Shown here: in pieces, positions 3,068 through 36,605 of the stretch | Position numbering within the stretch: the stretch's first letter is position 1 | Layout of the letters: every line of letters begins with the position of its first letter | Source of the DNA: a virus | IMG/VR virus record: IMGVR_UViG_3300010397_000041 | Span: 28,426 to 92,425 of that record | Direction: 5' to 3' (one strand) | Length of the DNA stretch: 64,000 nt | The notes under the pieces: generated by a model | Database searches by the model: none | What the model was told of the DNA's origin: nothing | The model's input: the letters and a program-made list of their open reading frames with translations, nothing else | Position numbers and translations under genes: made by a program

Positions 3068-5467
3068 TCAGGCGATCTGCAACCCGTTGTTGATGTTGCG
3101 GCGTTGGTTGCGCAAAGCCTGTTTCTGCACGATCCGGAACAGGGTCACACCGTCGACCTGGACGACAATGTCCGGCGGCTGCTGAGACCCGCGACTCCCC
3201 CCGCCGCTGGTCGCCGAGCCCCAGGATGAGGCGGAGCCGACCCAGCCGCCCGATGCCTTCCCGCCGGCGAGGATCGATCGGGTCTGGCTGGCGGTGTGGA
3301 TGTAGGCCGAGCCGCCGAACACCGCCAGCTCCGGGCCGCGCTCGCCGACCAAGACGGCGCGGCCGACCGGTGGGGAACCTCCCTCGGCGAACGGCAGGAT
3401 CTTGTTCGCTTTGCCGATGATCCCGCCGACTTTGCCTGCCGCGGTGGAGATCAGACCGATCCCTTTACCGATCACATCGAAAATCGGTTTCAGGAACTTC
3501 CACGCCACATCGACCGTGTCCTTGATCCCGCGCCACAGGAGATCCCAGCCGGCTTTGAACAGTCGCAGCTGGGCGCCGATGAACAGGTCGAGTCCGGTGC
3601 CGATCAGATGGAACGTCGGCCCGAGCAGGTTTTTCCACGCCCAGGAGACGACCGAGCTTAGAATGTTCCAGCCGATCCGCCAGGCGCCCACAAACAGCCG
3701 CAGCGCGAAACCGAGGATCACATCGAACGCGGCGGCGATCAGATGAAACGTCGGGCTGATGACGGTCCGCCACGCCCACAGCACCGTCGGAATGATCATC
3801 GCACGGAATAGCCAGATCCACATGGCGGCTTGCAGACGCAGCGGGATCAGTAGAATGTTAAGCCCGGTAGCGATGCCGCGAAAGACGGGTTGGAGAAAAC
3901 GCCAGGTGGCCTGCGCCGCGTCGACGATCTGCTTGTGGAAAAATCGCCAGGCCAGCAGGAAAGGTGCTAGCGGCAAGATCAGGATCGCGGCGACGATCTC
4001 CCAGTTTTTCTTCAGCCAGCCAATCGTGTCCCGCCAGCCGACCTTCATCCAGCCCCAGAAATCCGACAGCCAGCGTTTCACCGTCGACCAGTGCTTCACA
4101 ATTTCGTAGATCGCCACACCCAGGGCCACAACGGCGGCGATCACCAGGAACACCGGGTTCACAGCGAACGCCGCCTCGGACTCCTCTCCGGCCAAGATGA
4201 AGTCTTTGGCCGCCAGCAGCACGGCCTTCCCCATCTGGGCGGCACTCTTGGCGACATTCGCCATCCAGACGACGATCGACAGGGCCATCAGCGCGCCGAT
4301 CGCGGCGACCAGACCCTCGGTGATGTTCTTGTGACGGGCGAACCAGTCCCCGAGGGCCGTCAACGGCGGGATCAGTTTGTTTCCGATTTGAATGCCCAGC
4401 GACTCGGCCGAAGCCTTCAAACGGTCGACTTTGTTCTTGAAAGTGTCCTGAGTGGCCGCCCACGACGCGGCGAACTGATTACCGCCCCTGTCGACTTCCT
4501 CATACTTGTTCTGCAACTTGTCGTACTGGTCCATGAGCACATTGACGCCAGTGCCCGCCTTCTTGCCGAACATTGTCGTCAATACGGCGCCAGCCTGGGT
4601 GCCGGTGATCCCAGCCTTCTGCAGTCGGTCGTGCAGGTCGGTCAGCGCCTTGTTCAGGCCACCGGTCTGCATGTCTTTCGCCAGGGTCTTGCTGGTCAAG
4701 CCAAGCGCGGCGAGCTGCTCGCGCGCCGCCTTACCGGCCGCAGGTGTTGCCAGCGCCTGCACGGACATCCGCAACGCGGTACCAGCGGCAGCACCGCGAA
4801 TGTTGTTGTCACCGAAAAGCGCCAACGCGGCCGAGGCGTCGCGCATCGACAGGCCGTAGCCCTTGATGACCGCGATCATGCCGCCGCCCATCGCGTCGGC
4901 AAGGTCTTGCATGTGCATGTCACCGGCGCCGACGGTGGCGTTGAGCATTCCCATCGCCTTGTCAAGGTTCTCGTCGCCAGGTATCTGGGCGGTCATCGCG
5001 GCGCCGAGCGCGTTGGTGACGTCGACCAGGTTCGCGCCGCCGATCTTGGCACCTTCGGCGGACGTTTTGAGCAGCGCCATTGCCTTGGCGCCGGTCAGCC
5101 CTGTGCCGGCGAACTGCGATTCGATGTGGTAAAGCGCCTCGGCCAGCGAGTCGGGGCCTTCACCGACCTGCCCGGCGAGTTTGAGGACGCCGTTGGACAG
5201 GCCCTTGATCTGGTCCTGTGCCACACCGGCCTGGGTGTGAATCATCTCCATGGAGGCGTCGAAGTTCATCGCCAGATGAACCGACTCGGCGCCTACACCG
5301 GCGAGGGCCAGGGCGCCGACTTTGCCGAAGGTGGAGAAAGCCTTGTTCATCGCGCCGAGCCGGCCCTCGGACTCGGAAATGCCCTTGGAAAGCTCGGCCG
5401 TATCGCCCACAAACTTGATCAGTACCGGCGGGAGGAGGCCTCCGAACTCACCCATGGGCCCCGCCAC
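3068..5467 (-). CDS. Tape measure protein
   Basis: 799 aa, Ala/Gly-rich helical, AGTALRMS motif, periodic Trp repeats, FAEGG...LVGERGPEL motif. Confidence 0.95.
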   Translation of the reverse strand: MAGPMGEFGGLLPPVLIKFVGDTAELSKGISESEGRLGAMNKAFSTFGKVGALALAGVGAESVHLAMNFDASMEMIHTQAGVAQDQIKGLSNGVLKLAGQVGEGPDSLAEALYHIESQFAGTGLTGAKAMALLKTSAEGAKIGGANLVDVTNALGAAMTAQIPGDENLDKAMGMLNATVGAGDMHMQDLADAMGGGMIAVIKGYGLSMRDASAALALFGDNNIRGAAAGTALRMSVQALATPAAGKAAREQLAALGLTSKTLAKDMQTGGLNKALTDLHDRLQKAGITGTQAGAVLTTMFGKKAGTGVNVLMDQYDKLQNKYEEVDRGGNQFAASWAATQDTFKNKVDRLKASAESLGIQIGNKLIPPLTALGDWFARHKNITEGLVAAIGALMALSIVVWMANVAKSAAQMGKAVLLAAKDFILAGEESEAAFAVNPVFLVIAAVVALGVAIYEIVKHWSTVKRWLSDFWGWMKVGWRDTIGWLKKNWEIVAAILILPLAPFLLAWRFFHKQIVDAAQATWRFLQPVFRGIATGLNILLIPLRLQAAMWIWLFRAMIIPTVLWAWRTVISPTFHLIAAAFDVILGFALRLFVGAWRIGWNILSSVVSWAWKNLLGPTFHLIGTGLDLFIGAQLRLFKAGWDLLWRGIKDTVDVAWKFLKPIFDVIGKGIGLISTAAGKVGGIIGKANKILPFAEGGSPPVGRAVLVGERGPELAVFGGSAYIHTASQTRSILAGGKASGGWVGSASSWGSATSGGGSRGSQQPPDIVVQVDGVTLFRIVQKQALRNQRRNINNGLQIA

Positions 5468-16188: not shown

Positions 16189-17973
16189 TCAGCTCGTCGG
16201 CTGAATCCCGACGATCATCGACGAGCGGTCGGGGGCGTACGCGGCCATCGTCGACGTCCAGTACACGGACGTGTCGTACGACATCTGCATGACGGGCCAA
16301 TCGATGCTCATGTAGTCCTGTGGGCCGCGGATCTCCCAGCAGTTCGCGACGTTCACCCCGGGAACGGTGATCGACGACTGGAGGACGACGGCGTTACCCT
16401 GCGGCATCCAGGGGTGCACCTTGATGTCGACGGAGCGGCCGGTCGTCTCGTTCACGATGCTCGTGACGACGCTGCCGAGCTTGACGCCCATCAGCTGGTC
16501 CTCGGAGATCTCCAACCTGTAGTTGGAGGCGGACTGGCCGCGCAGCGTCGAAGAGATCTGATGCCTGTCCTGACCCGACAGCCAGATCTCCTCGGGATCC
16601 GCCTTCGTCGCCGCGTAGGTCGCGGCGAACGCGGCCTGGAACTCGGCACCCGGGCTTGCCGTGGAGAACGGGGCGTTGAGCCGGCCGACGTAGCCGGTGG
16701 TGGCGGCCTGCGACCAGATCCACGGGATGATCCCGTCGTAGTTGTCCGGCCGGGCCGACACACCGTCACCGGTGGCGAGGTTGACGGTCGCGCCGCCCTG
16801 GATCGGCCAGGCGGCGACGGTCGCCGTGGCGAGGCTTCCCGAACCGGGGGTACCGATCGCGCCCTGCAGGGTGAGGGTCTGCGTCGGGGTGCGGCCCGCG
16901 GACTGGTTGCTCGGAAACGCCGGGCCGACGTACAGGTAGCGGCTCGCGTCCCCGGGGTCCGAGGCGCCGGTGGAGACGAACACCTTGTAGCCGGTGGTCC
17001 CGGTCACCGGGTTCGGGATGGTGATGTCGACGACCTGGCCGGCCGAGACTGCGATACCCGAGGACGCGGACGACGCCTGCGAGACGCCGAACTCGCCGCT
17101 TTCGGCGACGACGCGGACGTAGACGTTGCTGGTGAACCCGGTCAGCGCCGTCTCACCGGTCGCCGCGTTCCGGGCCGCGCCGGTCGGCGTGCCCGACGGG
17201 GCGGCGACGAGGCCGCTGTACCCCTGCAGGGTCCCGCGGCCGTAGAGCATCACCCGCTCCTCGGCCAGCATCGAGGCGTAGAGCGTGGCCATGCGGCTCA
17301 GCTCGCGAGTGTCCTGGAATCCCATCGCGCTGAAATAGGTCCAGAACGACTGTTCATCGCTGGCGCCCATCTGCACATAACTGAGATTGGTGTCGTCACC
17401 GGCGTAGCTGATCTTCTGCGGGCGGTTCCACCACAGCGGGTTCGCCGAGCCCGGGTTCGCGAAGTTGACCTGGGTCGGATCGGTGAATCCGGGGTTGAAC
17501 GCGCCCAGCCCGCCGGTTCCGGAACCGGAAATACCGGTCACCCTCTTGTAGCGGTATGAGGTGCCCATTCCCTGCGTGCGGGGGAACTTGTTCCTCATCG
17601 GCGTCAAGATCGGAGCGAGGAGCAGCGCCGGGGCACGCAGGTCGAAGCCGACGAGACCACCGGGCACGGGCGACGTCGGGGTGATGTCCTTCTGCAGCCA
17701 GTCCGCGCCCAACTGCTGGGCGACCGCCGCCTCGACCGCCGCCATCTTGTCCGCGGACACGCCCAGGTTGCCGTACGCCTTCGTCAGAACCTGACGGGCG
17801 TTGCCGCGGACCGTCGGGACTAGCGCCTTGTTCATGACGTCGAGTTCGACGTCACCACGTTGCGTGTTCGGCGTCGTCTCGACCGCCATCCGGAAATCAG
17901 CGGCGGCCTTGACCAGGTCGGCGTCGGAAAGCTTCGCGCCGAACAGCTCGCGCAGCAGCGTCGTCGAACTCAT
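16189..17973 (-). CDS. Major capsid protein with an internal Ig/FN3-like insertion
   Basis: GFDLRAPALLLAPILTPMRNKFPR, EERVMLYGRG, VHPWMPQG motifs; follows protease/scaffold; AGAGG RBS. Confidence 0.88.
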   Translation of the reverse strand: MSSTTLLRELFGAKLSDADLVKAAADFRMAVETTPNTQRGDVELDVMNKALVPTVRGNARQVLTKAYGNLGVSADKMAAVEAAVAQQLGADWLQKDITPTSPVPGGLVGFDLRAPALLLAPILTPMRNKFPRTQGMGTSYRYKRVTGISGSGTGGLGAFNPGFTDPTQVNFANPGSANPLWWNRPQKISYAGDDTNLSYVQMGASDEQSFWTYFSAMGFQDTRELSRMATLYASMLAEERVMLYGRGTLQGYSGLVAAPSGTPTGAARNAATGETALTGFTSNVYVRVVAESGEFGVSQASSASSGIAVSAGQVVDITIPNPVTGTTGYKVFVSTGASDPGDASRYLYVGPAFPSNQSAGRTPTQTLTLQGAIGTPGSGSLATATVAAWPIQGGATVNLATGDGVSARPDNYDGIIPWIWSQAATTGYVGRLNAPFSTASPGAEFQAAFAATYAATKADPEEIWLSGQDRHQISSTLRGQSASNYRLEISEDQLMGVKLGSVVTSIVNETTGRSVDIKVHPWMPQGNAVVLQSSITVPGVNVANCWEIRGPQDYMSIDWPVMQMSYDTSVYWTSTMAAYAPDRSSMIVGIQPTS

Positions 17974-18055: not shown

Positions 18056-20041
18056 CTATGCGGCGGCGGGCGGGTCCAGCGCGTCGAGCTGCCGCTGAAT
18101 CTCGGCCCGCATCGCCGGGTCGGCGCCGGGGGCGTCACGCATCGCGCGCAGCACGCCCTTCTTCACGTCCGCCTCCGCTGTCTTTGCGAGCTCGGCGGGC
18201 GACACCGGAGGCTGCACTCGCGTCCTGGCAGGGCCGCCCGGCCTCGGCGTCTCGTGCAGCGTGGCCTTCACCTCTGCCAGCCCCTGCGCGAGGGGCTCCA
18301 TGGCCTTCGTGATGGCGTCGCCGAACTGCGCCGCGAGGTCGGCACTCACCCGTGCGGTGATCGCCTTCGTCAGCGTATCGGTGTCGGTGGTGCTGGCCGC
18401 CTTCGCCATGTCAGGCTCGGCGGGGGTCTCGGTGCCGGCCTCGCCGGCGTGGGTCGCGGCCGCGGCCGCGGCCGCCTTCTTCAGGCGCTTCCGCATCTTC
18501 TTCGCGGCCTTTTCGGCGGCAGCCTTCATCAGGTCGGGGGTGCCGGCCTTCTCGGCGCCGTCCTCGGTCGGCTCGGACAGCGCGCCGGCGTCAGGCTCGG
18601 TCATGTGCTTGATCTCCATGGCTTCGTTCCTCATGAACCAGGTCACGAGCTCCGCCGCCTGCGCGAGCAGCGCGATGTCCGCCACCTCGCCGAGCTCGCC
18701 GAGGAACAGGCCCATCGCCTCGGAGCGGATCAGGCACGCCAGGCCCTGGATGACGGCCTTCGCGGCCGCGATGTCGTCCATCTCGGACGCGGCCGCGGCG
18801 TTGTCGGTGAGCTGCAGCCCGCCTTCGTCGCCGTCGTCGGCCTTGACCACGTCGGGCGCCGTAGCCTTCTCCTTCGGCTTGGTGGAGCCGGGCCAGTCGG
18901 CGGGCAGCAGGTCCGTCGCGTCGAGGGCCTTTGCGCGATCGGTGATGTGCTTCTTCGCGGCCGCCGGGTCCTTCGCACGGCCGAACGCCTGGATCGCGTC
19001 GTTGAGCTGGGCCCGGTTCTGGATCGGGAACCCGCCCGACGGCATCGCCTCGCCCGCGGCGGCCGCGTCCTCGCGCTCGCCGGCGGTGAACTTCCGCTTC
19101 TCGAGCTCGGTGGCGACCGCCTTGATCAGCGTGTCGAAGTCGGGCTCGACGGCCTTGCTCGAGGACTTCGCGCTGCCGGTGTCGTCGGCGTCCTCGCTGT
19201 CGGGCTTGCCGTCCCCGTCGTCGTCCTCATCGTCCCGGTTGTGGACACCGTCGCCGTCAGGGTCGGAGCCGCCCTGGCCGCCGTCCTCCGATTGGAAGGG
19301 CTTGGCCTTCCGGCCACCGAACTTGCCGGCCTTCTTCCGCTTCGCCAGCGTCTCCGGATCCGCGGCGTCCGGGTCGTCAGGGTTGGCGACGACGGAGGGG
19401 GCGGTGAGCTGGTCGACCAGGGCGGCGGTCATCGGCAGCACCCGACCATCCGAGGTCTTGAGCAGCATCTGTGGGCCGGGCGCGACAGGGACCGCATCGA
19501 CCGCCTTCTCGACCTCGTCGCCTTCGACGAACTCGGGGCTGTCGACGAGGTCGAGCGAGCCGGTCGCCTTGTTCAGCGCGGCCATGCGAAACAGCGCCGA
19601 CGGCAGCGAGGGCCGGTCGACGGCGCTGACTTCGATCACGTCGCCCCGGCAAACCTTCCCGTTGGGCGCGTCGGTGGCCTTGGCAAGGCCGTAGTTCGCG
19701 ACACCGACCGAGAATCCGGTCAGGATTCCGTGCTCGATCTTCGCTTCGGCGACCGGGTCGACGATCTTCGCCCGCATGTGCCACGAGTGGTCGTCGGTCT
19801 CCCAGACCTCGACCGCCTTACCAATCGGCCGTTGGGCCGAGTGGCCCTCGCGGACATTCCCACCTGACGGCCCGTGCATGTACGCCGGGATCGCGGCCTT
19901 GAGCCACGTCGGGTCCATGCGCTGGCCGTCGGAGTCCAGGTCCGGGCCGGTGAACTTGCCCTCTACCCAGAGGATGCCGGCTTCGTCGCGTTCCTTGCGC
20001 AGGAACGGGGTGTAGATGTCCAGACGCTCAGCAACGGGCAT
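18056..20041 (-). CDS. HK97-family prohead protease fused to scaffold
   Basis: DSDGQRMD, GNVREGH, GILTGFSVG, IEVSAVDRP motifs; long acidic/Ala-Lys C-terminal region. Confidence 0.88.
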   Translation of the reverse strand: MPVAERLDIYTPFLRKERDEAGILWVEGKFTGPDLDSDGQRMDPTWLKAAIPAYMHGPSGGNVREGHSAQRPIGKAVEVWETDDHSWHMRAKIVDPVAEAKIEHGILTGFSVGVANYGLAKATDAPNGKVCRGDVIEVSAVDRPSLPSALFRMAALNKATGSLDLVDSPEFVEGDEVEKAVDAVPVAPGPQMLLKTSDGRVLPMTAALVDQLTAPSVVANPDDPDAADPETLAKRKKAGKFGGRKAKPFQSEDGGQGGSDPDGDGVHNRDDEDDDGDGKPDSEDADDTGSAKSSSKAVEPDFDTLIKAVATELEKRKFTAGEREDAAAAGEAMPSGGFPIQNRAQLNDAIQAFGRAKDPAAAKKHITDRAKALDATDLLPADWPGSTKPKEKATAPDVVKADDGDEGGLQLTDNAAAASEMDDIAAAKAVIQGLACLIRSEAMGLFLGELGEVADIALLAQAAELVTWFMRNEAMEIKHMTEPDAGALSEPTEDGAEKAGTPDLMKAAAEKAAKKMRKRLKKAAAAAAATHAGEAGTETPAEPDMAKAASTTDTDTLTKAITARVSADLAAQFGDAITKAMEPLAQGLAEVKATLHETPRPGGPARTRVQPPVSPAELAKTAEADVKKGVLRAMRDAPGADPAMRAEIQRQLDALDPPAAA

Positions 20042-20686: not shown

Positions 20687-21110
20687 CGGCGCTCTCCTCG
20701 GACTCGGGGGCGTCGAGGCGCATCTGCTTGTCGCGCGCTGCGATCTCCCAGCGGGAGAAGGCGGTATAAACGTCGCGCTCGTCCTTCCACCCGTCCGATG
20801 GGAAGACCATCGCCGGAATCGACGGGTCCCTGCAGAGCACAGCGGCATAGACCCGGTGCTGGCCGTCTATGCCGACCATAGAGCCGCTTTTCCGGACTCC
20901 GACGATCACCCGCTTGGACTGACGGTCGGCCTCGGACAGTTTCATCAGCGCAGCGACCTTGTCAGGGTCGAGTGGGCGCTGGCTGTGGACCCGGTCGAAC
21001 ATGATCAGCTGAGGGTCCAGGTAGACCGGCGACAGCTCGTCGTCGTCGAGGCCCAGGTCGGCGGCGGTGTACGTCGTCGGGTGGTTGTGTTCGCCGTCCT
21101 GGTCAGCCAT
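20670..21110 (-). CDS. ParB/Srx-fold DGQHR-motif protein
   Basis: SQRPLDPDKV...IDGQHRVYAA. Confidence 0.7.
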   Translation of the reverse strand: MADQDGEHNHPTTYTAADLGLDDDELSPVYLDPQLIMFDRVHSQRPLDPDKVAALMKLSEADRQSKRVIVGVRKSGSMVGIDGQHRVYAAVLCRDPSIPAMVFPSDGWKDERDVYTAFSRWEIAARDKQMRLDAPESEESADAGGS

Positions 21111-21483
21111 CGGCGGGCACCGGGTCGCCGAGGAACGTCACCGTGTTGCCGGCCCTGACGGACCGCTGGTCCGCTTCGGGGATGTCCAGCGGTGGCATGT
21201 CCAGCGCAGCGCGCGCCTCGTTGACCGTCATCCGTCCGGTTCCGACCTCGGCCGCGAGTCGGCGGTCCTCGAACTCGTGCCAGGCACGCCACTGGGCGTC
21301 CGACATGGGGACGAGCGAGTAGGCGATCTGGTTCTGATCGTCCGGGTTCGGCAGGGTGACGATCAGGTCGACGGTGACAGCCGTGCGGTTGGGCCACGCG
21401 ATAGTGAGAGTCACCTCGCCGGGGGCGACGGCTATCCCGGTTGGCCGAACCGGCGAGACGCTGATCTCAGGCAGGTCAGACAC
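21103..21483 (-). CDS. Small protein carrying a portal C-terminal-like segment
   Basis: GRMTVNEARAALDMPPLDIPEAD aligns with the window's portal; GGAGG RBS. Confidence 0.7.
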   Translation of the reverse strand: MSDLPEISVSPVRPTGIAVAPGEVTLTIAWPNRTAVTVDLIVTLPNPDDQNQIAYSLVPMSDAQWRAWHEFEDRRLAAEVGTGRMTVNEARAALDMPPLDIPEADQRSVRAGNTVTFLGDPVPADG

Positions 21484-21817
21484 GGGGACCTCCGAAGCCG
21501 GGGCCGTTGCGCAGCCTCTGCCGTTGGATCTCTTGCCACAGCCGCTGGCCGTCGATGTGAACCGGTGTGCCGTCGGGGAGGGAACCGATCGGGGCGCGCC
21601 GCTGGATCGCGTCGACCTTGGCGTGCAGCGCGGCGAGGGCCTGCTCGTGGGCGTCGTGGCGAGCGTGCAGCTCGTCGCGATGCCGGGCGAGGTGTACACG
21701 CATCCGCCAGACGGCGAGGGCGCCGGCGGGGGCCGCCCAGATCGCCGAGGCGATCAGGTTCGACCAGATGCCGCCAGCCGGCCACGCGAAGAACACGTCG
21801 AGAAGATGCACAGGCAT
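21476..21817 (-). CDS. Membrane protein carrying a tape-measure C-terminal-like segment
   Basis: GAGGAG RBS; N-terminal TM; VHIDGQRLWQEIQRQRLRN aligns with the TMP C-terminus. Confidence 0.65.
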   Translation of the reverse strand: MPVHLLDVFFAWPAGGIWSNLIASAIWAAPAGALAVWRMRVHLARHRDELHARHDAHEQALAALHAKVDAIQRRAPIGSLPDGTPVHIDGQRLWQEIQRQRLRNGPGFGGPRV

Positions 21818-24511: not shown

Positions 24512-25045
24512 TTAGAAGATGCTGCGGCCGCCGCGTGGCGCGCCGGGCGCTTCTCTCATCAGCTGGTCGAGGCCGCGTCGCTCCCGGTGCCGTTTCCGGT
24601 GCTGCCGATCGTCCTGGCCGCCCGGCGTCGCTGCCTTGACCGCCGGTGCCGGCTGGTGGTGCAGCCTCGGCGGATCGAGCGGCACAGGCTTCGGCGCGGC
24701 TTTGGCCTGCGCTCGCCGCACTGCGTCGTCGGCCGCCAGTTCCCCGGCCGCCCAGCCGGCCCGGTAGCAGTCCCTCAGAGCCGGGCCCAACGCGCCTTTG
24801 CGGGCGTGTTGGTCGAGGATCAGCCGGATCTCGTGCCGCAGGATCTGCGGGTCGGTGGTCGTCCCGCCGGGCCAGCGGGCCGCGAGGACGCGGGCGACGG
24901 CTTCCGGGTCAATAAGTCGGCTGGCAGCCTGGGATACCCGCTCGGCGTAGCGCGGGTTCAGCGCGTCGTGCGCCTGGAAGCCGATCCACTGCGCCCGCTC
25001 CCTGGTCAGGTCGCGGGCTTGCGGCTCGCCCCCCGCCACCACCAC
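24512..25045 (-). CDS. MuF N-terminal-like region overlapping the portal end; possibly a frameshifted portal extension
   Basis: ALRDCYRAGWAAGELAA helix typical of MuF N-termini; no clear RBS; +1 frame relative to portal at a G6 run. Confidence 0.5.
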   Translation of the reverse strand: MVVAGGEPQARDLTRERAQWIGFQAHDALNPRYAERVSQAASRLIDPEAVARVLAARWPGGTTTDPQILRHEIRLILDQHARKGALGPALRDCYRAGWAAGELAADDAVRRAQAKAAPKPVPLDPPRLHHQPAPAVKAATPGGQDDRQHRKRHRERRGLDQLMREAPGAPRGGRSIF

Positions 25046-27218
25046 CAGCCTTCGCCAGCTCGGCTACGGCCGCTTTGGCTCTCAGGGCGGCGAGCCCCGG
25101 CTGGTTGTCCTGCACCATGACGTTCAGTTCGCGGGCCAGCTGCTCCGGCACTGCAGTGAACGTGAACGCGCGGGACCTGCCACCCGACTTCTCCAACCGG
25201 GTTGCGTAGCGGGCGAACGCACCCAGCTCGGCCGCGACCGCCTTCGCCTCGTCCTTCGGACGGTGCGGAAAGCCATCCTCGGCCAGCCCGTAGGCCAGAC
25301 AGCCCGGCTCGCCGTCCGTGGGGACGAACCGGTGCTGGATGTCCTGGGCGTCGCCGGCGGTGCCGTCGATGCCCTGCGCCTGGCGGGCCGCCTCGCCAGC
25401 CTCCTGGAAGGCCTGCGTGGTGGCGGTCTTGGCTACGGCCGTCTTCTGGCCCGAGCCGTCCGAGGCGGACGCCGGCTTGGGCGGCGCAGCTTCCTCGCCG
25501 GCGTCGGAATCGTCGCCGGAGTCGTCGTCGGATTCTTCGGACTCGTCGGCCTGCTTCCCGCGGGCCGGTCGCTGCGCGGGCGCGGCTTGGAAACCCGCGA
25601 CGGCGGCCTGCGAGCCGGCCCTCGCCGCGGCCCCCTGCGCCTCCTGGATCGCCTTCTGGCCGTCGAGGAACAGGACGCCGCGGCCGTAGGCGACGAACGG
25701 CTCGTCGGCTTCTTCGATCGGCAGCGGCGGCAGGCCCATCTCGTCGCGGGCCTCGTTCAGCGTCCGCCGGCCGCCTTTGACCTGCGTGTCCAGCACCGCA
25801 TCGGCCGATGCCTGGTCTTCTTCCTCGAGGCCGAGGAATTTGAACTCGACGGCGGGGTGGACACCGAGGTAGCGGTGGTTGATGTCGTTGAAGATCGCGG
25901 CGAGCCATTTGCACCACGGGTGGATCAGCTTGCGGTACTGGATGTTCTCCTGGCCCTCGTGGTAGCTGCTGCCCCCCAGGCCGCCGGACTCGATGAAGCC
26001 GATCTCCGCCGGGGTGACACCGAACGCGGCGGCGATCAGCTTGACCAGGAACAGGTCGTACTCGGGCTTGTACTTCTGCGCGTTGTCCGTGAAGGTTGCC
26101 AGCTTGCCGCCGGGCAGGCCGATCTGGATCCGCTGCCGTTCGGAAAGGTTCCCCGACAGCGTGTTGTTGATCTCGGCGCGCCAGCGGCGGACCTCGGCCG
26201 GGGTCATACCCTTCGCCGACTCAGGGACCTCGAGGAACGCCATCGGCAGCGACGAGGCGTCGAACTCCTGGGTCAGCCAGTCGGCGCGTTTCAACCACAG
26301 GTTGATCTCGATCAAGGCTTTTTCGACGGGGCTGATGCCGTAGGGCGAGATGGTACGGACCTCGCGGCGGCAGTAAATCAGCTCGTCGGCGGTCAGCCCG
26401 CCGTCGATCGTGCCGTCCTTCCCGATCGCCGCGGTGAACTCGCCACGAGGGAAGCCGTACATGATCTGCTGGAACGCGGGATCGGGCGGCAACGGCCGCC
26501 GGCCGCGGTTGTCCAGAAGCGGCTTCACGAACTCGCCTGCGATGATCTCGCAGGCCAGGTCGTTGCCGTACGACCAGCGCGGATTGATCGCCAGCGCGTC
26601 GAGGACCAACGACTCTTCGAGCGCCATCCCGAGCCAGTCGACGAAGTTGTAGCCGCCGAACCGGTCGGGCCGCTTCCAGAACGCACGCGCCTTCGCGATG
26701 TCCGGTGCGAGCTTCTCCCGCAGCGCCGACTTCGCCTGGACCTTGCGGATCCCGTCGAGTTCCATCGCGGTGGTGACGGCATCCTCGGACACGGTGGTCG
26801 CCCAGTCGAGCCCGCAGATCTCCGATTTGATCAGGGAGATGCAGTAGCGGACGATCCCGACGTCGGCTGCCTTCCGCAGCGTCTCGAACGGCACATGCCG
26901 CCGTTCACCGCCGGGGACGTTCCAGCCGACCGGATATTCCCAAACCCTGGGGTCCGTGCGGCCGTCGGGGCGAAGCGGGTCGATCGCGTACGGCCCGGGC
27001 GGGGTGAGCGGGCCGAACGGAGCCGTGTAAGGAAGTTCGCGGGGCAGCGGCTCGTAGGCGCCGATCGCCACACCCGACTGCACCGCGCCCGCCGCGGCCG
27101 CGGCCGCCTGCGCGGACATGTCCCGGGTCTGACCGCCGGCGGCACGGGCCGCCGCCGCGTACGACGCCTTGTCGAGCTGGCGGCGCTTACGGTTGCGGGC
27201 ACGGCTGCGAGACGACAC
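24909..27218 (-). CDS. Portal protein
   Basis: Follows terminase; YGISPVE, AAAFGVTPAEIG, TLNEAR..MGLPPL motifs; GAGG RBS before GTG. Confidence 0.92.
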   Translation of the reverse strand: MSSRSRARNRKRRQLDKASYAAAARAAGGQTRDMSAQAAAAAAGAVQSGVAIGAYEPLPRELPYTAPFGPLTPPGPYAIDPLRPDGRTDPRVWEYPVGWNVPGGERRHVPFETLRKAADVGIVRYCISLIKSEICGLDWATTVSEDAVTTAMELDGIRKVQAKSALREKLAPDIAKARAFWKRPDRFGGYNFVDWLGMALEESLVLDALAINPRWSYGNDLACEIIAGEFVKPLLDNRGRRPLPPDPAFQQIMYGFPRGEFTAAIGKDGTIDGGLTADELIYCRREVRTISPYGISPVEKALIEINLWLKRADWLTQEFDASSLPMAFLEVPESAKGMTPAEVRRWRAEINNTLSGNLSERQRIQIGLPGGKLATFTDNAQKYKPEYDLFLVKLIAAAFGVTPAEIGFIESGGLGGSSYHEGQENIQYRKLIHPWCKWLAAIFNDINHRYLGVHPAVEFKFLGLEEEDQASADAVLDTQVKGGRRTLNEARDEMGLPPLPIEEADEPFVAYGRGVLFLDGQKAIQEAQGAAARAGSQAAVAGFQAAPAQRPARGKQADESEESDDDSGDDSDAGEEAAPPKPASASDGSGQKTAVAKTATTQAFQEAGEAARQAQGIDGTAGDAQDIQHRFVPTDGEPGCLAYGLAEDGFPHRPKDEAKAVAAELGAFARYATRLEKSGGRSRAFTFTAVPEQLARELNVMVQDNQPGLAALRAKAAVAELAKAGGGGGGRAASPRPDQGAGAVDRLPGARRAEPALRRAGIPGCQPTY

Positions 27219-27240
27219 GGGGCCACCTCGCGCGCCTTGG

Positions 27241-27438
27241 TTAGTCGTGCCGCGGACAGCCGCCCATGACCACCAGGCCGTAGGTCGGATGCCAGTGGCA
27301 GCCGCATCCCAGGCCGCGGCGAAGCCACACGTGGGCGATGAACAGGAAGCGCCGCGGGCCGGGCCTGTACCCGGCCTCACGCCAGAGGGGACGCATGAAC
27401 CGGACGTAGCCGATCAAAGTCACAGGGTCCGCCTCCAA
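27241..27438 (-). CDS. Hypothetical small protein
   Basis: Fills the terminase-portal gap; Cys/His-rich end. Confidence 0.4.
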   Translation of the reverse strand: MEADPVTLIGYVRFMRPLWREAGYRPGPRRFLFIAHVWLRRGLGCGCHWHPTYGLVVMGGCPRHD

Positions 27439-29054
27439 CCCTGCGCGGATTCGCCCCCGCCGAACCAGGCCGACATGTCGACCGCCGCAGGCTCCCGCGC
27501 TTCGGGCGGCGGCTGCTGGTGCGCGTTGGCGTCGGATTCGGCGATCAGCTGGTCCATGAAGCTGGCGAAATCACCCCGCAGATCCACGAAGGCGAGGATG
27601 AGCGCGTCGGCGTTGTCGGGCGACCGGCCGAGCCGCTCCCGTTGATCGTCCTTCGGCTCGACCTGGATCTGCCCGCGGCTGTTCGGATGCCACTTCGCGG
27701 TCAGCAGCTGATTGCAGGCGTCGTCAGGATTCTCCGCGCCCGACTGCCACACACCGTCAGCGTTGTAGACGGCCGGGGAGAGGTCCCACGCCTGCTGCTC
27801 GGACTGGAGCCGGCCAACCTCCCACCAGATCTCCGACCGCAGGTTCGCGAACCGCTTCGAGTCGGTTGCCTGCTGGCCGACGTTCACCCCGGTCACCGTC
27901 GCCGTGTGGGTGCCGTCGCCGCGGAGCTCCTTCAGCCGGTCGGCTACGCCGGCGCCGATACCGATGCTGTCGACGTTGACGGCCGTCGCCCCGGTGATCT
28001 CAATCGCTTTGAGGACCAGGCGGACGACGGACATGGTGTCGTCGTCGCGGTCCCGCCACTCCCGGCCGACCATCCGGCCGCGCCGCTCCCGGATCACAGT
28101 CTCATCGCCGCCGCCACCGACGTCGACACCGAGGACAACCGGGGTGAGCTCGTCCGGGGTGTACTCGCGGTCGGTGGGCTGCCGGCACTTCGCCAGGTCA
28201 GAGGAGCGCACGACCTGATCGGAGGCGTCCAGCGGGAACTCGCCGAGAACCTTCTCGAACCAGAGCGGAGAGCCCTCACCCCAGTCGGCGCGCTTCTCCT
28301 CCACCCACGTCTTCGAGACCAGCGCGCGGCGCAGCAGATCCGGGACCCGTTCGCCGGTCAGGTTCGGCGTGTCGAACGCGGAGATGGTGATGACGTGCCA
28401 GCCCGAACCGGGACGGCAGACCTGCGCGAATTCGCTGGAAGGGTCGGCAGGGTTGCCGATCGCCAACAGGGCGCAGCCCTCGTTGGTCATGAGCGCGTCG
28501 GCGGCGGTCCACAGCCAGCCGGGGATCCCGCTCGCCTCGTCCAACGCAACCAGAACGCCGTCGGGGGCGTGGATGCCCTGAAAGGCGGTGCGGCCCTGCT
28601 CCGTGTCGGGCGGTTTCCGGCCGAAGCCGATCAGCTCTTTGCCGAGCTTCCACTCCGTGGTGAGCACCCGGCCGGGTAGGGGCGTGCCACGTTCCGCGGC
28701 GACCGCCGCGGCCTGGCCGATGTAGCGCCACAGGATCGCCTGGACCTGGGCAGCCGACGGCGCGGTCGTGACCGCGAACGCCTGACCGGGAGTCCGGGTC
28801 GCAAGCCAGTGGGCCACGACCCGAGAGGCAGTGTGGGACTTTCCGCAGCCGTGTGCCGACTTGACCGCGACCTTACGGTGCCTGGTCAGCGCGGTGACGA
28901 TCTCAACCTGCTTGGACCACAGATGCTCGCCGAGCACGTCCGACACCCACAGCGCGGGGTCGGTGCGGTACTGCTGCTGGCGGGCCTCGCTGTCGAGCCG
29001 GTCGAGAGCGGCGAGCAGGTTGGATGACAGCCGGTCGGGCAGCGCTACCACCAT
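27420..29054 (-). CDS. terL: Terminase large subunit
   Basis: Walker A SAHGCGKS, Walker B VALDEA, IGNP, nuclease LGVDVG, SPDNADAL. Confidence 0.96.
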   Translation of the reverse strand: MVVALPDRLSSNLLAALDRLDSEARQQQYRTDPALWVSDVLGEHLWSKQVEIVTALTRHRKVAVKSAHGCGKSHTASRVVAHWLATRTPGQAFAVTTAPSAAQVQAILWRYIGQAAAVAAERGTPLPGRVLTTEWKLGKELIGFGRKPPDTEQGRTAFQGIHAPDGVLVALDEASGIPGWLWTAADALMTNEGCALLAIGNPADPSSEFAQVCRPGSGWHVITISAFDTPNLTGERVPDLLRRALVSKTWVEEKRADWGEGSPLWFEKVLGEFPLDASDQVVRSSDLAKCRQPTDREYTPDELTPVVLGVDVGGGGDETVIRERRGRMVGREWRDRDDDTMSVVRLVLKAIEITGATAVNVDSIGIGAGVADRLKELRGDGTHTATVTGVNVGQQATDSKRFANLRSEIWWEVGRLQSEQQAWDLSPAVYNADGVWQSGAENPDDACNQLLTAKWHPNSRGQIQVEPKDDQRERLGRSPDNADALILAFVDLRGDFASFMDQLIAESDANAHQQPPPEAREPAAVDMSAWFGGGESAQGWRRTL

Positions 29055-30479: not shown

Positions 30480-30725
30480 CTACGCTGTCGACTGCAAGCA
30501 TGCGGTTGATCGCGGCGCTTCGCGGCGGCAGCGGGAGCACAGGTGCCGGGCCCGTCGTCGGACCATGACCGCGCAGTCGTCGAGTTGCGCGCCGCAAACG
30601 GTGACCACGGGGCCGATAGGAATCGTGTTCCAGCCGGCCGGTTCGGGTGGCGGGTCGGCGATCAGGGTGAGGTGTAGCTGCTGCTCGAGGCGGCCGCGGA
30701 GCACGGCCCGAAGCTGGTCAGGCAT
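30480..30725 (-). CDS. Zn-finger hypothetical protein
   Basis: H...CG...CSRC; paralog of part of 30980-32005. Confidence 0.55.
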   Translation of the reverse strand: MPDQLRAVLRGRLEQQLHLTLIADPPPEPAGWNTIPIGPVVTVCGAQLDDCAVMVRRRARHLCSRCRREAPRSTACLQSTA

Positions 30726-30987
30726 CGTCGCCGAGTAGTGCGGCCAGCTTCCCGTGGGCCACCGAGGTTTCCAACGGTACGACCGCCCTGCCCGCGAGGA
30801 TCGCCTTGCCGAGGGAAACCGCAAACTCGCGGGCTGCGACCTCGACAGCGAGGAGCTGGCCGAGCCATCCGTACTCCGGGCCGATGGCGTGGTCGGACAG
30901 CTCCTGGAGCCATTCCGCGCCTGGCCGTCGGTGGTCGCGTTCTCCGGGCATGCCGCACAGCTCGTACCAGTCCCCGCTGTCACCCAT
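30718..30987 (-). CDS. Hypothetical protein
   Basis: Paralog of the N-terminus of 30980-32005. Confidence 0.55.
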   Translation of the reverse strand: MGDSGDWYELCGMPGERDHRRPGAEWLQELSDHAIGPEYGWLGQLLAVEVAAREFAVSLGKAILAGRAVVPLETSVAHGKLAALLGDDA

Positions 30988-32005
30988 CGAGGGGGCCTGC
31001 CCTCTTCCCGGCGCTCGGCTGTGCAGCACGGAGCATCGCCAGGAACTCGCCGCGGGTCTCGGCGCCGTGCGTGTTCCGGCCGTGCAGCCACAGCGCGTTC
31101 TCGACTCGCCGCTCGTAGAGCAGGTCGACGGCGCCCGGCAGGCCAAGCTCTGCGGCGTACGACGCGAGGTTGGGGGGATGTTCGTACTCCCAGCCGCACA
31201 GCGGGCAGATCGACACGGTCGCGCCTGGCCGGTGCCGGTGGATCTGACCCGGCATGCCGGCGGTCTCACGGCGGCAGCGGGAGCATGCGCCCTTGGATCG
31301 GCGGCGGGTCAACACCGCGGAGGGGATCCCGATGCCGCAGGCGGTGCGGACCGGGCCGACCGCGCGGTCCCGGTTGGCGATCAGGATGTCCGAGGGCCAG
31401 CGAGGATTGGGATCGTCCATGTTGGCCGGGGCTTTCGCGGCCAGGTGGGCTGACAGCCAGGTGAGGTGGATCTGTCGGCGACGGTCGGCCGCGTACGGCC
31501 GGCAGACCGCGCGCAGGACGAGGAGTTCGCTCACCCGTTTCTCCCGGTGCCCCTGCAGCGGTCGACGCAGTCCGACGACACATAGCAGCCGCCGTCGAGG
31601 TCGAAGCTGGACGGCGGGGCGATCCAGCAGGGGTGACGGCGGACACGCAGGATCGAAGTCGGGTGCGTCTGAGGATTGCGCGGGCTGGGCGTGCGCCTCG
31701 CCGAGCAGTACGGCGAGCTTCTCGTGGGCCTCGGCCAGCCGTTCGTGCAGCTTCTCGCCGTCAGCCCCAGCGTGGGTGTCGATCTCCCAGGCGGACCAGT
31801 ACGGGGAGACCGTCTCATCGTCCACTAGGGGAGCGACCGCGGCGGCCAGCTCGCGTGCTGCGGCCTCGATGGCGAGCAGTCGGCCATAGGGCCCGTACTC
31901 GGCTCCAACGAGATGGTCTTCCGCGAAGTGCTCGACGTCGTCCTCGGCGAAGTGGGATCGGGGAAACCAGTCCCGGCAGAGCGCACACGACTCGCCCTTG
32001 ACCAT
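30980..32005 (-). CDS. Hypothetical ORF, probably two or more genes in one frame (second likely starts at GTG 31534)
   Basis: Two halves each resemble one of the two downstream genes. Confidence 0.5.
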   Translation of the reverse strand: MVKGESCALCRDWFPRSHFAEDDVEHFAEDHLVGAEYGPYGRLLAIEAAARELAAAVAPLVDDETVSPYWSAWEIDTHAGADGEKLHERLAEAHEKLAVLLGEAHAQPAQSSDAPDFDPACPPSPLLDRPAVQLRPRRRLLCVVGLRRPLQGHREKRVSELLVLRAVCRPYAADRRRQIHLTWLSAHLAAKAPANMDDPNPRWPSDILIANRDRAVGPVRTACGIGIPSAVLTRRRSKGACSRCRRETAGMPGQIHRHRPGATVSICPLCGWEYEHPPNLASYAAELGLPGAVDLLYERRVENALWLHGRNTHGAETRGEFLAMLRAAQPSAGKRAGPLDG

Positions 32006-32840: not shown

Positions 32841-33180
32841 TCACCTCCAGCCGGGCCGCGGCATCGGCCATCGGCTCACACGGCCACGAATCCACCCAGG
32901 CGTATCGGGCGCGTCGGCGACCTGCTTGGCGATCGCGGTCAGGGCCTTCGCGATGCTGCGCGCCGTTCGGCGGTTGAATCCGGCGGCGATGCGCATGGCG
33001 GCGAGGACAGCGGCGTCGGGGAGGTCTTCGGCTTCGGCGGTGAGCACCGGGTCGACGCGGCCGAGGACCTCGAAGTCGCCTCGGCAGCCGCAGGGGGATG
33101 TCGGCGGCCTTCCGCACTCGGGCCGGGTTCCCGTCGGCGATCCAGGCGGCGAGCGGCGCGCCGAGCGTCGGAGTGTTCAC
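32841..33180 (-). pseudogene. Probably frameshifted hypothetical gene
   Basis: Coupled GTG start frame turns into Arg/Pro-rich text while another frame (CGCRGDFEVLGRVDPVL...) looks coding. Confidence 0.35.
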
Positions 33181-33281
33181 CGCTGCCACCGGTCCCGCTC
33201 GAAGTAGACGCCGAGGGTGAAGCCGAGCAGACCGGAGGCGAGGGCGGCCAGCACGATGATCAGGATGGTGCTCGCGGTCAT
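33177..33281 (-). CDS. 34-aa membrane peptide (MTASTILIIVLAALASGLLGFTLGVYFERDRWQR)
   Basis: Translated by hand; ATGA and GTGA couplings on both sides. Confidence 0.55.
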   Translation of the reverse strand: MTASTILIIVLAALASGLLGFTLGVYFERDRWQR

Positions 33282-33730
33282 GATGTTGACTCCGCTGCGA
33301 GCAGGAACCGCATCGCCTCGTCGCGGCGGAACCCTGCCTGCAGGTGCGCGGCGAGCGTCTCGTACCGGGCCCTCGCAACCGGGTCAGGAGGCAGGGCTGT
33401 CGGCCCGGTGACGACCGCCGTGGCTGACGGCAGCCAGTTGCACGTCAGGATCGGCACACCCCGGCCGGTAAGCGGATGGGCCACCGTCTCGATAAATGCG
33501 GGCTTGTTCAAAGCATCGTCGTAAGTCCGAGGCGGCCGGACCGCGACGGCAAGCACCGTTTGCGCCGTCGACGACATGTAGATCCCGGCCGGTTCGCCAC
33601 CCCAGTCCCGGACAATCGTTTCCAGGGCGTCGAACAGCCGGTCTGGTGCTGCGACCCTACTGACGTCGATTTGGCGGAGTTCGCCGGTCTCGCCGTCGGC
33701 CCAGTAGATGTGGGTCAGGTCGCCGGTCAT
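33278..33730 (-). CDS. Small protein resembling the C-terminal (A-domain) part of the major capsid protein
   Basis: EPAGIYMS and LTGRGVPILTCNWLPSATAVV align with the window's capsid; GGAGG RBS, ATGA coupling. Confidence 0.65.
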   Translation of the reverse strand: MTGDLTHIYWADGETGELRQIDVSRVAAPDRLFDALETIVRDWGGEPAGIYMSSTAQTVLAVAVRPPRTYDDALNKPAFIETVAHPLTGRGVPILTCNWLPSATAVVTGPTALPPDPVARARYETLAAHLQAGFRRDEAMRFLLAAESTS

Positions 33731-34530
33731 GAGGCCTCCGCGAGGCGCATCGTCAGCGCGTGCAGCTGGTCGTTGCCGAGGCGCCAGGCGTGGCGCATCG
33801 ACCGGTCGTTGACCCGGCAGCTGACGGGTGGATTCCCCCAGCACCAGGGGCAGTCGGGGTTGCGCGCGTCTCCGCAGCCGCCGGTCTGGGTTTCGGGGTC
33901 TCCGAGGCAGAGCATGCGGCAGGACGGATAGTTGTGATCGTCGTGGCAGCCGTTCGGGCCGCCGGTGCCGCAGTAGATCAGCCCCGTATCCGGGGAGATC
34001 ATCAGCGAGGGTTGTTTGCAGGCGTCGCACGTCGCCGCCGCGAGGCGCAGCGGGTAGGGCGCGCGGATCAACCCGAGTTCGATCTTTGTCCGACCGTGGT
34101 AGGAGCGAAGGTCGGCGAGGACTTCCTCGCCGAGGGGATGGTCTGCCGCGAGCTCAGGGAGTAGGGCCAATGCCCGGTCGAATGGGATCGCGAGGGCCCT
34201 GACCCGCCGGCCGTCGGGGGTTCGGCCGCGGTCGAGTGCCGGGTGGACGACCGGCAGCCAGTAGGTCACGGCCTTGCGTATCTCGCTCGCGAGGGACAGC
34301 GGGTAGTCGTCTGTCGGCGGCTGCGAATGCGGCTTCGACGACGAACCCGATACCTGCTCGACGACAGGTCGCTGCTCGTACTTCTCGGCGAGGCGGTCGA
34401 GGAGGCTTGGGTGCGCTTTCTTCCCGGGCGCCAGTTGCTCGGCCGGCGGGTCGTCTCGGTGTTTGAACTCGACGTGTTGTTCGTGGAGCAGTGCCCGAAG
34501 TTCTTCAGCGATCGCGTCGTTCGCTGTCAC
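33727..34530 (-). CDS. Zn-finger protein, candidate late transcription regulator
   Basis: HPSLLDRL, SKPHSQPP, CDAC...IYCG motifs; upstream of the packaging module; function inferred. Confidence 0.55.
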   Translation of the reverse strand: MTANDAIAEELRALLHEQHVEFKHRDDPPAEQLAPGKKAHPSLLDRLAEKYEQRPVVEQVSGSSSKPHSQPPTDDYPLSLASEIRKAVTYWLPVVHPALDRGRTPDGRRVRALAIPFDRALALLPELAADHPLGEEVLADLRSYHGRTKIELGLIRAPYPLRLAAATCDACKQPSLMISPDTGLIYCGTGGPNGCHDDHNYPSCRMLCLGDPETQTGGCGDARNPDCPWCWGNPPVSCRVNDRSMRHAWRLGNDQLHALTMRLAEAS

Positions 34531-34570
34531 GGTTCCGACCGTACCCGGACCATCGGGACGCCCGGTGGCC

Positions 34571-34891
34571 CTAACGGGACGAATCGGGTGGCGTGTCGCC
34601 GGGCCGGACGGCGCGCAGCGGCCGGCCGGCGGGCGGCTGGGCTGAGGGGTGCCCGACGGCGGCGGCGGTGTCGGCGGCAACGTTGCGGGTCGCGTCGCGC
34701 CACGCTTCCTTGATGGCGCCCCAGGCGTCGCCGATGGCGGACATCGCGCGGCTGGCGAGGGCGGTCGAGAGCCGGTTGGCGTCGTCATCGGTGATCTTGC
34801 GGCGGTCGATGCGGGTGACCAGCTCGTCGACGAGGAGCGCGGTCGGCAGGTTGTCGAGGTCGGGCGGCGCGCTGGTCATGTGGATCAGCAT
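34571..34891 (-). CDS. Hypothetical protein
   Basis: Plausible ORF on the coding strand. Confidence 0.45.
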   Translation of the reverse strand: MLIHMTSAPPDLDNLPTALLVDELVTRIDRRKITDDDANRLSTALASRAMSAIGDAWGAIKEAWRDATRNVAADTAAAVGHPSAQPPAGRPLRAVRPGDTPPDSSR

Positions 34892-35153: not shown

Positions 35154-36605
35154 TCAATTCACCATGTCGACAAACCGGCTGTAGTGCCCTTGGAATGCCA
35201 CGGTGATCGTGCCGGTCGGGCCGTTGCGGTGCTTGGCGACGATCAGATCGGCCTCGCCGGCCCGCGCTGACTCCTTCTCGACCATGTCTTCGCGGTACAG
35301 CAGGATCACGATGTCCCCGTCCTGCTCGATCTGGCCAGAATCACGCAGGTCGGCCAGCGTCGGGCGCTTGTCCGCGCGCAGGTCGGAGGCCCGGTTGAGC
35401 TGGCTGACGACCACGACTGGGATCTCCAGCTCCATCGCGAGCGTCTTCAAGCCGCGGCTGATCTCGCTGATCTCCTGGACCCGGTTGTCGCGGCGGCCCG
35501 CCGTCATCAGCTGCAGGTAGTCGACGAGCAGCAGTCGCAGGTCGTTTCGCTCGTAGAGACGCAGCGCCGCAGCGCGCAGCTCCTGCACGGTCAGGCGAGG
35601 CCAATCGTTGATGAACAGCGGCGCCTCGGCGACCTCGCCCATCCGCCGGGCGAGCCGGCCCCAGTCGTCCTCGGTCAGCCGGCCGGTGCGCATGTTCTGC
35701 AGCGAGACTCGCGCCTCCGCGGCCAGCAGCCGGAGCGTCAGATCGACCCCGGGCATCTCCAGGCTGTACAGCGCCGTCGTCATCCCGTATTTGATCGCCG
35801 CGGCGCGGGCGATGTCGAGACACAGCACCGACTTTCCGACGCCCGGCCGGCCCCCGACGACGACCAGCTGGCCGGGCTGCAGCCCATTCGTCAGGTCGTC
35901 GAGCTCGGCGAACCCGGTCGGCACCCCGGTGATCCCACCTTCGTGGGCAGCGATGGCCTCGATCGCGCCAAGCGCCGAGCCGAGCAGGTCTCCCAGGGGT
36001 CGGGATGGCGGCAGCTTCGTCGATCCGGACAGCCGGGCCGTCGGTCGGGCCACAGACGGCGCTTCGAGGACGACCTGGTCGAGGGTTCTCTCGGTGACCC
36101 GCCGGGCCGGCCGGTCGAAGTCCGCCCACGCTCGGACCGCGGCTAGCACCTCCCTGCAGGGGGCGTCCGGCGTGACCCGGGTGTCCAGGATGATCGCCGA
36201 CTCGTGGTTGCCCCGCAGGCCGGAGAATGTCAGGTTCGCCGACCCGGCCAACACGGTCTCGGACCCGTCGCCGCGGCGGATGTAGTAGCTCTTGGCGTGC
36301 ATCAGCGGTTGTTCGTCGTCGCCGTCGACGAGCAGTAGCGTCGCCCGCGAGCCGTGCGGCTCGAATAGCGCCGCGACTGCAGCCAGGTCGGCCGCGGAGA
36401 CCTGCTCCTCCCGGGCGCCGGTGACCAGGTGGACTTCACCGCCGCGGTCAAGGATGGCCGCCAGGTGCGGCTGGATCAGCTTCAGTCCGTGCTCGGTCAG
36501 GTAGCCGGTTTGGGCGGCAAAGACTCGCGCTTCCTTGAGCTCGGTGAGCATCCATCGCTCGACGGTGTGGTCGGGGCCGCCGGCGGCGGTGTCGAGATAG
36601 CGCAC
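35154..36605 (-). CDS. PLD-family nuclease domain fused to a DnaB helicase C-terminal (RecA-fold) domain
   Basis: MHAKSY...GSANLTFSGL..NHE; GRPGVGKS, YSLEM, VDYLQLM, SQLNR, DLRDSGQIEQDGD, AKHRNGPTG. Confidence 0.9.
   Translation of the reverse strand: MRYLDTAAGGPDHTVERWMLTELKEARVFAAQTGYLTEHGLKLIQPHLAAILDRGGEVHLVTGAREEQVSAADLAAVAALFEPHGSRATLLLVDGDDEQPLMHAKSYYIRRGDGSETVLAGSANLTFSGLRGNHESAIILDTRVTPDAPCREVLAAVRAWADFDRPARRVTERTLDQVVLEAPSVARPTARLSGSTKLPPSRPLGDLLGSALGAIEAIAAHEGGITGVPTGFAELDDLTNGLQPGQLVVVGGRPGVGKSVLCLDIARAAAIKYGMTTALYSLEMPGVDLTLRLLAAEARVSLQNMRTGRLTEDDWGRLARRMGEVAEAPLFINDWPRLTVQELRAAALRLYERNDLRLLLVDYLQLMTAGRRDNRVQEISEISRGLKTLAMELEIPVVVVSQLNRASDLRADKRPTLADLRDSGQIEQDGDIVILLYREDMVEKESARAGEADLIVAKHRNGPTGTITVAFQGHYSRFVDMVN

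Follow-up and report, generated by a model that had tools for sequence, protein, structure and literature searches.

In the present study, we analysed a 64,000-nucleotide stretch of viral DNA (hereafter the window, meaning this whole stretch), which forms the right-hand 64 kb of a virus record of 92,425 bp. This record carries direct terminal repeats and derives from a soil metagenome assembly; the guanine-plus-cytosine (GC) content is ~70%. The analysis centred on P0001, an open reading frame (ORF) of 150 amino acids (aa), which a preliminary description of the DNA had taken for a stand-alone gene resembling the A-domain of the phage's own major capsid protein. The results indicated that P0001 looks like a real gene, judging from its sequence, and that its likeness to the capsid is not above chance by alignment statistics. 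The reading that we prefer, held with about even confidence, is that P0001 is an orphan accessory gene, unrelated to the capsid, with a chance match. The features that carry this reading are the following.

33278-33730, minus strand: P0001, 150-aa orphan ORF (translation; codon-position GC)
33735-33739, minus strand: GGAGG ribosome-binding site, 4 nt ahead of the P0001 ATG (read from the sequence)
33572-33595, minus strand: P0001 residues 46-53, EPAGIYMS, the first motif of the preliminary description (3 of 8 residues identical to DPEEIWLS, capsid residues 459-466)
33383-33496, minus strand: P0001 residues 79-116, the sole capsid-like stretch, TGR-V...W-P...AVV...LP-PD (BLAST; within proteome noise)
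16189-17973, minus strand: major capsid protein of 594 aa; HK97 fold that carries an inserted beta domain (PHROG 13692, E 2e-78)
16357-16642, minus strand: capsid residues 444-539, the A-domain segment paired with P0001 residues 31-116 (hhalign)

Coding evidence for P0001 and searches for homologues

Positions 33278-33730 of the minus strand translated into 150 aa, in agreement with the ORF, strand and coordinates of the preliminary description. The GC content by codon position was 0.68/0.54/0.79, which is the coding pattern of this genome, and the ATG was preceded by the GGAGG ribosome-binding site. ATGA overlaps join P0001 to the genes on both sides. At 33727-33730, its ATG shares bases with the stop codon of the Cys-rich gene upstream, which confirmed the coupling to this gene that had been noted before; at 33278-33281, its stop codon shares bases with the ATG of a 34-residue single-helix membrane peptide. 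The frame fills the gap between these two minus-strand genes exactly. The same 150-aa product was recorded by an independent gene caller. The other reading frames of positions 33000-34000 contained no capsid-like sequence and showed no better coding pattern. It might be argued that the ORF is untranslated, being an open frame left over in GC-rich DNA between two real genes: long spurious ORFs are numerous in high-GC DNA, the GC content at third codon positions of P0001 (0.79) lies at the low end compared with the genes of this genome (0.81-0.92), and conservation and selection cannot be demonstrated for a protein with no homologue. The codon-position pattern, the ribosome-binding site, the exact fit with overlaps at both ends, the lack of a better frame in the stretch and the independent gene call all argue against an untranslated frame, which we consider very improbable.

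Homologue searches retrieved P0001 itself only among 5.8 billion clusters, and itself and one artefact among 1.84 billion representative proteins in an exhaustive HMMER search. The artefact was P0002 (2859 aa, E 6e-10), an extracellular protein of Planctomycete type in which a 109-aa repeat occurs 17 times in identical form; it was rejected as a homologue because the weak scores of the repeats, 26 bits each, add up. Nothing was found in Pfam (E <= 0.1), PHROGs, NCBIfam or the PDB sequences, and tblastn against 50,697 phage records gave nothing at E 0.01; a single match (E 9), to a 142-aa ORF that has neither annotation nor family, was dismissed as chance. P0001 was also not found in G001, a 115-kb complete record that is the closest relative of this phage (capsid 80% identical). 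In G001, the upstream Cys-rich gene is kept and is followed by an ATGA-overlapping 68-aa ORF unrelated to P0001. Because the relative keeps the upstream gene with an unrelated ORF behind it, and because P0001 finds only itself, we regard the slot as variable and P0001 as a singleton at the level of sequence comparison. For a singleton, no alignment can be built, which limits structure prediction and profile methods.

Chance level of the resemblance to the capsid

The observations behind the proposed resemblance were largely reproduced. Both peptides quoted for P0001 were present in it, both capsid peptides were found in the minus-strand ORF 16189-17973, and a recount of the longer match again gave 10 of 29 identical residues without gaps. 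The capsid ORF lies 15,305 bp from P0001, in line with the ~15 kb given before. The two motifs do occur in the same order, whereas their spacing, which had been called similar, differs (a spacer of 25 residues in P0001 versus 35 in the capsid). BLASTP of P0001 against the phage's own capsid (residues 501-530) gave 10 of 30 identical residues and 24.6 bits, with an E value of 0.002 for the single pair. The observed Smith-Waterman score was reached by 18-22 of 2000 shuffles (p ~0.01 for this one pair, with either partner shuffled).

Since the preliminary description could choose among ~130 proteins, the proteome-wide controls were decisive, and they scored as high in BLAST, hidden Markov model (HMM) and hhalign comparisons; a resemblance above chance was not borne out. 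In the all-against-all proteome BLAST, about a dozen unrelated pairs reached at least 24.6 bits. A capsid profile HMM built from 45 homologues gave P0001 an E value, within the proteome, of 2.4 with the full profile and 0.42 with the C-terminal third. Other proteins did equally well, and the profile scored P0001 lower than the single-pair comparison did. Against 120 capsid homologues, P0001 reached at best 29.6 bits (13 of 37 residues identical to P0032, extending into the family LPxPD motif), and 18 of the 120 gave at least 24 bits. Two unrelated Ala-rich helical proteins of the phage reached 32.7 bits (26 homologues) and 29.6 bits (21 homologues) on helical capsid regions, and reversed decoys reached up to 30.8 bits. 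With hhalign, P0001 and the capsid family were aligned with a probability of 3.2% and a score of 23.6, which placed P0001 tied second or third among 208 real and reversed queries; reversed decoys scored 22.6 and 22.3. A useful benchmark for such noise came from a pair of adjacent paralogous helical proteins of 152 and 165 aa (38% identical, E 4e-22), encoded ahead of the window on the plus strand of the same genome (G000 3946-4898; -24479 to -23527 in window numbering): one of them gives the proteome's best spurious capsid-family match, at the 32.7 bits mentioned above.

The residues themselves gave a similar picture. Residues that are invariant in the capsid family are replaced in P0001 (N508 by H, V519-H520-P521 by T-C-N, and Q525-G526 by S-A), and only T511-G512, W522 and P524 are kept. 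When P0001 residues 1-78 were compared with the 110 residues ahead of the motif in 60 homologues, the score fell below the shuffle mean (p 0.68), and the profile version of this comparison gave no signal either (p 0.11). Pfam PF17236 (SU10_MCP), which is carried by one of the 120 capsid homologues, was discarded as a test of P0001 because the model does not match even the phage's own capsid. Taken together, kinship with the capsid A-domain was unsupported by every alignment-based test, that is, by BLAST, HMM, hhalign and the N-terminal half.

Fold evidence and descent from the capsid gene

The capsid itself was well placed by its AlphaFold2 (AF2) model, which had a predicted local distance difference test (pLDDT) score of 75.6. 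Foldseek matched this model to SPO1, SU10, HK97 and encapsulin shells with E values down to 3e-10, and the structural neighbours included PDB entries 9vel (SPO1), 7z48 (SU10) and 1ohg (HK97). From the model, we assigned residues 222-244 to the spine helix, ~264-369 to an inserted beta domain and ~415-535 to the A-domain, after which come the long P-domain strands. The predicted elements of the A-domain are E428-434, H443-456, E462-465, H467-481, E505-507, E514-519 and E527-531. The capsid segments that had been matched to P0001 (459-466 and 502-530) indeed fall in the A-domain of an HK97-fold protein, as the preliminary description had it.

The single-sequence AF2 model of P0001 had a pLDDT of 49, which is too poor to judge the fold, and this low-confidence model gave no capsid match in the PDB and BFVD. 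A complex prediction of capsid residues 100-594 with P0001 scored 0.00 and carries no weight either way. The ESM Atlas has its own model of P0001 (pLDDT 0.61; predicted template-modelling score, pTM, 0.57).

Several observations weigh against a chance match. First, the mean Smith-Waterman score of P0001 against the 120 capsid homologues was 45.5, compared with 35.3 +/- 2.3 for shuffles, and 76 of the 120 best alignments landed on one same capsid segment, although the homologues are not mutually independent. Distant members of the capsid family matched P0001 better than the phage's own capsid did, and the match recurs across the family and reaches the LPxPD motif. Second, the Atlas feature neighbours of whole P0001 that have families all belonged to the HK97 clan (SrpI encapsulin, P2, SU10_MCP and GP7), with scores of 0.89-0.90. 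Residues 1-78 alone, which lack the motif, also gave capsid families only (0.84-0.92; uncalibrated for protein parts), with 14 of 30 matches in SU10_MCP sets and further ones in GP7, Crass, P2 and lambda E. The Atlas model aligned to SU10_MCP-type and viral clusters with template-modelling (TM) scores of 0.53-0.54 over 108-117 residues; the nearest clusters were a 225-aa SU10_MCP-type one and viral ones of 527-574 aa, in the length range of this capsid family. Third, when the AF2 secondary structure of P0001 residues 1-66 was slid along the capsid model, the offset set by the motif alignment ranked in the top 1.5-6%, ahead of 94-98% of the remaining offsets. At this offset, the helix at 29-42 falls on H443-456, and the strands at 18-21 and 47-54 fall on E428-434 and E462-465; further along, the strands at 79-84 and 91-96 fall on E505-507 and E514-519. 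We rated this agreement between predicted structures at p ~0.05-0.1, allowing for the freedom of gap placement. Finally, the same genome holds a portal mini-gene (21103-21699, minus strand), located between the MuF-like gene and the protease gene, that copies portal residues 527-572 (22 of 46 identical, 40.8 bits, E 2e-8). Since this mini-gene holds a statistically real portal segment, partial copies of virion genes can arise in this phage. In the all-against-all proteome BLAST, it was the portal pair that stood out, whereas protease and tape-measure pairs did not rank among the top 40. The remainder of the mini-gene is unrelated to the portal; in G001, its sole match was the portal gene itself, and the mini-gene appears specific to this phage.

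These observations would be explained if P0001 descended from the capsid gene, either as a diverged stand-alone A-domain or as a captured A-domain segment. In the first variant, residues ~1-116 would be an HK97 A-domain to which two new C-terminal helices were added. In the second, P0001 would be a chimera that captured the A-domain hairpin segment alone, as the portal mini-gene captured a portal segment. The invariant residues would have been lost once the protein was freed from the needs of assembly. Such a protein could act on whatever recognises the A-domain, namely the neighbouring subunits of the capsid (assembly modulation) or host capsid sensors (decoy). The matched capsid segment lies in the A-domain, on whose elements the predicted helix and strands of P0001 fall, and hhalign set both motifs on one colinear alignment of P0001 residues 31-116 to capsid residues 444-539. 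Free-standing A-domain proteins are known in the form of Family 4 encapsulins (PMC8346489), and the capsid A-domain is the face bound by Avs7, Avs8 and Avs10 (bioRxiv 10.64898/2026.01.04.697583).

On the other side, all alignment statistics of P0001 lie inside the proteome noise, the family profile scores below the single pair, the invariant positions are replaced, and the N-terminal half gives no sequence signal. According to the tool's own note, Atlas scores of this level are reached by shuffled proteins 4-10% of the time, and the shared-feature counts of P0001 (105-147) lie in the chance or distant range, with true family members usually at 170 or more. The AF2 model, though of low confidence, has no capsid match, and the gene is kept in no relative. 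The Atlas look-up hints at a capsid-like fold and is the strongest point for the capsid reading of the preliminary description, yet it is uncalibrated. Judged by the models, the fold evidence on P0001 is split. We regard descent from the capsid gene as a serious possibility of somewhat less than even likelihood. Its fullest form would make P0001 a highly diverged free-standing A-domain in a Frankia-type actinobacterial phage, made from the replication-packaging junction together with a zinc-ribbon protein. Its exposed capsomer-forming face would then either titrate host sensors that recognise this face, as Avs7, Avs8 and Avs10 do, or cap capsomers as they grow; this we consider doubtful. The chance match to an orphan accessory gene remains the reading that we prefer.

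Genomic neighbourhood, host and comparison with known systems

The genes around P0001 that define its position are the following.

35154-36605, minus strand: PLD-DnaB helicase, the nearest recognisable gene upstream (Pfam DnaB_C E 5e-95, PLDc_2 E 2e-9)
33727-34788, minus strand: upstream Cys-rich (zinc-ribbon-like) gene (longest ORF 353 aa)
33177-33281, minus strand: 34-aa single-helix membrane peptide (translation; its ATG overlaps the P0001 stop)
27420-29054, minus strand: large terminase, the first recognisable packaging gene downstream (PHROG 2, E 1e-29)
24909-27380, minus strand: portal (downstream of the terminase in gene order)

Every gene from 36605 down to ~14400 lies on the minus strand. 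The order is PLD-DnaB, a 64-aa ORF, the Cys-rich gene, P0001, the membrane peptide, several small orphans, the large terminase and the portal, followed by a MuF-like minor head protein, a ParB-like protein, a protease/scaffold gene (18056-20041) and the capsid gene. P0001 has DnaB upstream and the terminase, portal and capsid downstream. It therefore lies where the replication module meets the packaging module, and the capsid gene follows 15.3 kb downstream of it on the same strand. The preliminary description had placed P0001 in an early region; this was not supported, as P0001 is co-oriented with DnaB and with the terminase, portal and capsid alike. A scan of 28.5-38.5 kb found no promoter-like site with the sigma-70 consensus, which is ill-suited to this host, and the terminator-like sites in the same interval numbered one, below the shuffle count.

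The upstream gene was recorded in the database as 267 aa (P0123) with a start near 34530. Cys residues abound in its C-terminal half (CxxC ... C ... CHDD ... C ... CPxCWG). A homologue in G001, detected solely by tblastn on that genome, shares 41% identity over 261 aa and retains the Cys pattern (L013:17320-18069, minus strand). In the related-locus search, nothing was found for this gene in public viral and genome contigs, and the homologous-protein search returned the gene itself alone. All of its family matches were below threshold (DUF7341 at E 0.01 and PHROG 1568 at E 0.04), as were the zinc-finger models, zinc-ribbon and zf-HIT, on the G001 copy (E 0.01-0.03). The gene had been called a candidate late regulator; the hits behind that label, to DUF7341 and zinc ribbons, are all sub-threshold.

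Further observations were made on the surrounding genes. In the replicative helicase (35154-36605), a PLD-type nuclease domain (PF13091, E 2e-9, residues 47-143) replaces the usual DnaB N-terminal domain. The 34-aa peptide has one hydrophobic helix and a basic tail (ERDRWQR) and could be a small membrane protein made with P0001. The block from P0001 to the terminase is a mosaic of small Cys-containing genes. Within 30480-32005 (minus strand), the module CxxC ... G-x-EYGP-x-GRLLAIEAAA-x-ELA opens a 341-aa ORF and is found again in the ORF directly downstream; the corresponding region of G001 (89238-89763) contains a 103-aa ORF next to a 73-aa one.

The relatives of the helicase and the capsid point to Frankia-type actinobacteria as hosts, because the DnaB helicase is 81% identical to a copy on a contig of Frankia sp. 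AiPa1 (locus L001) and a capsid homologue recorded from Frankia sp. AgW1.1 is 68% identical. Locus L001 was rejected as a related locus, as it has DnaB alone in common with the window and its flanks are unrelated. A search of sequencing runs with a stretch of the window matched the likely source soil metagenome alone (as contigs), and no RNA data set was listed. What is shared with G001 is limited to a few junction genes and the head-to-tail structural block (window positions ~75-27400 and the block just before the window start). No G001 counterparts were found by tblastn (E 1e-4) from window position ~36900 onward, almost none in the first 23 kb of the genome, and none for the large terminase.

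In the reading that we prefer, P0001 would be a genuine small accessory gene that this phage lineage alone carries, and it would occupy a fast-changing slot with replication genes (PLD-DnaB) on one side and packaging genes (terminase and portal) on the other. It is probably translated in series with the conserved zinc-ribbon-like protein and the 34-residue membrane peptide, because stop and start codons overlap on both sides of it. The 30-37-residue likeness to the capsid A-domain hairpin would be coincidental, or too faint to serve as evidence, and P0001 would neither build nor copy the capsid. By analogy with variable phage slots, it would most likely be a soluble alpha/beta protein with a part in host take-over, exclusion or anti-defence, in which the two coupled neighbours perhaps share.

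If kinship with the capsid were true, P0001 would add an actinobacterial example to the stand-alone A-domain genes and would be a testable decoy candidate, because several bacterial immune sensors grip the A-domain surface. On the present evidence, the case is mainly a caution. A by-eye match of 10 of 29 residues is expected by chance in a 130-gene proteome of 70% GC, and a list of language-model neighbours can bear a claim only once a same-genome control has been run.

We finally compared P0001 with known systems. It resembles the A-domain of its own capsid in an ungapped match of 30-37 residues over the hairpin (TG[RK]-V, W-P, LPxPD), in a similar predicted helix-strand-...-strand-strand order and in having capsid families as Atlas neighbours. 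In contrast to the capsid, it has no P-domain, E-loop or spine helix, and its last 35 residues are predicted to form two helices without a capsid counterpart; the similarity is within proteome noise, the invariant N, HP and QG are replaced, and there is no confident fold match. Family 4 "A-domain encapsulins" (Pfam PF08967, DUF1884; PDB 2PK8) are free-standing proteins proposed to consist of the HK97 A-domain only, and they occur in thermophilic archaea and Bacteroidetes in two-gene operons after an enzyme (hydrogenase, OsmC, GAPDH or DeoC) (Andreas and Giessen 2021, PMC8346489). P0001 is likewise a small (~100-150 aa) free-standing protein. However, it matched neither DUF1884 nor any other Pfam family at E <= 0.1, 2PK8 was absent from the fold-search lists, and it lies at a phage replication-packaging junction, flanked by the genes for a zinc-ribbon-like protein and a 34-aa membrane peptide. 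The portal mini-gene of the same phage is also a small ORF with a short segment like a virion protein and an unrelated remainder, although its match is statistically real and that of P0001 to the capsid is not. Orphan accessory genes in variable phage slots are small, lack homologues, are replaced in the nearest relative, and are packed and coupled with other small genes. P0001 fits this class, and the sole point that distinguishes it is the uncalibrated capsid lead.
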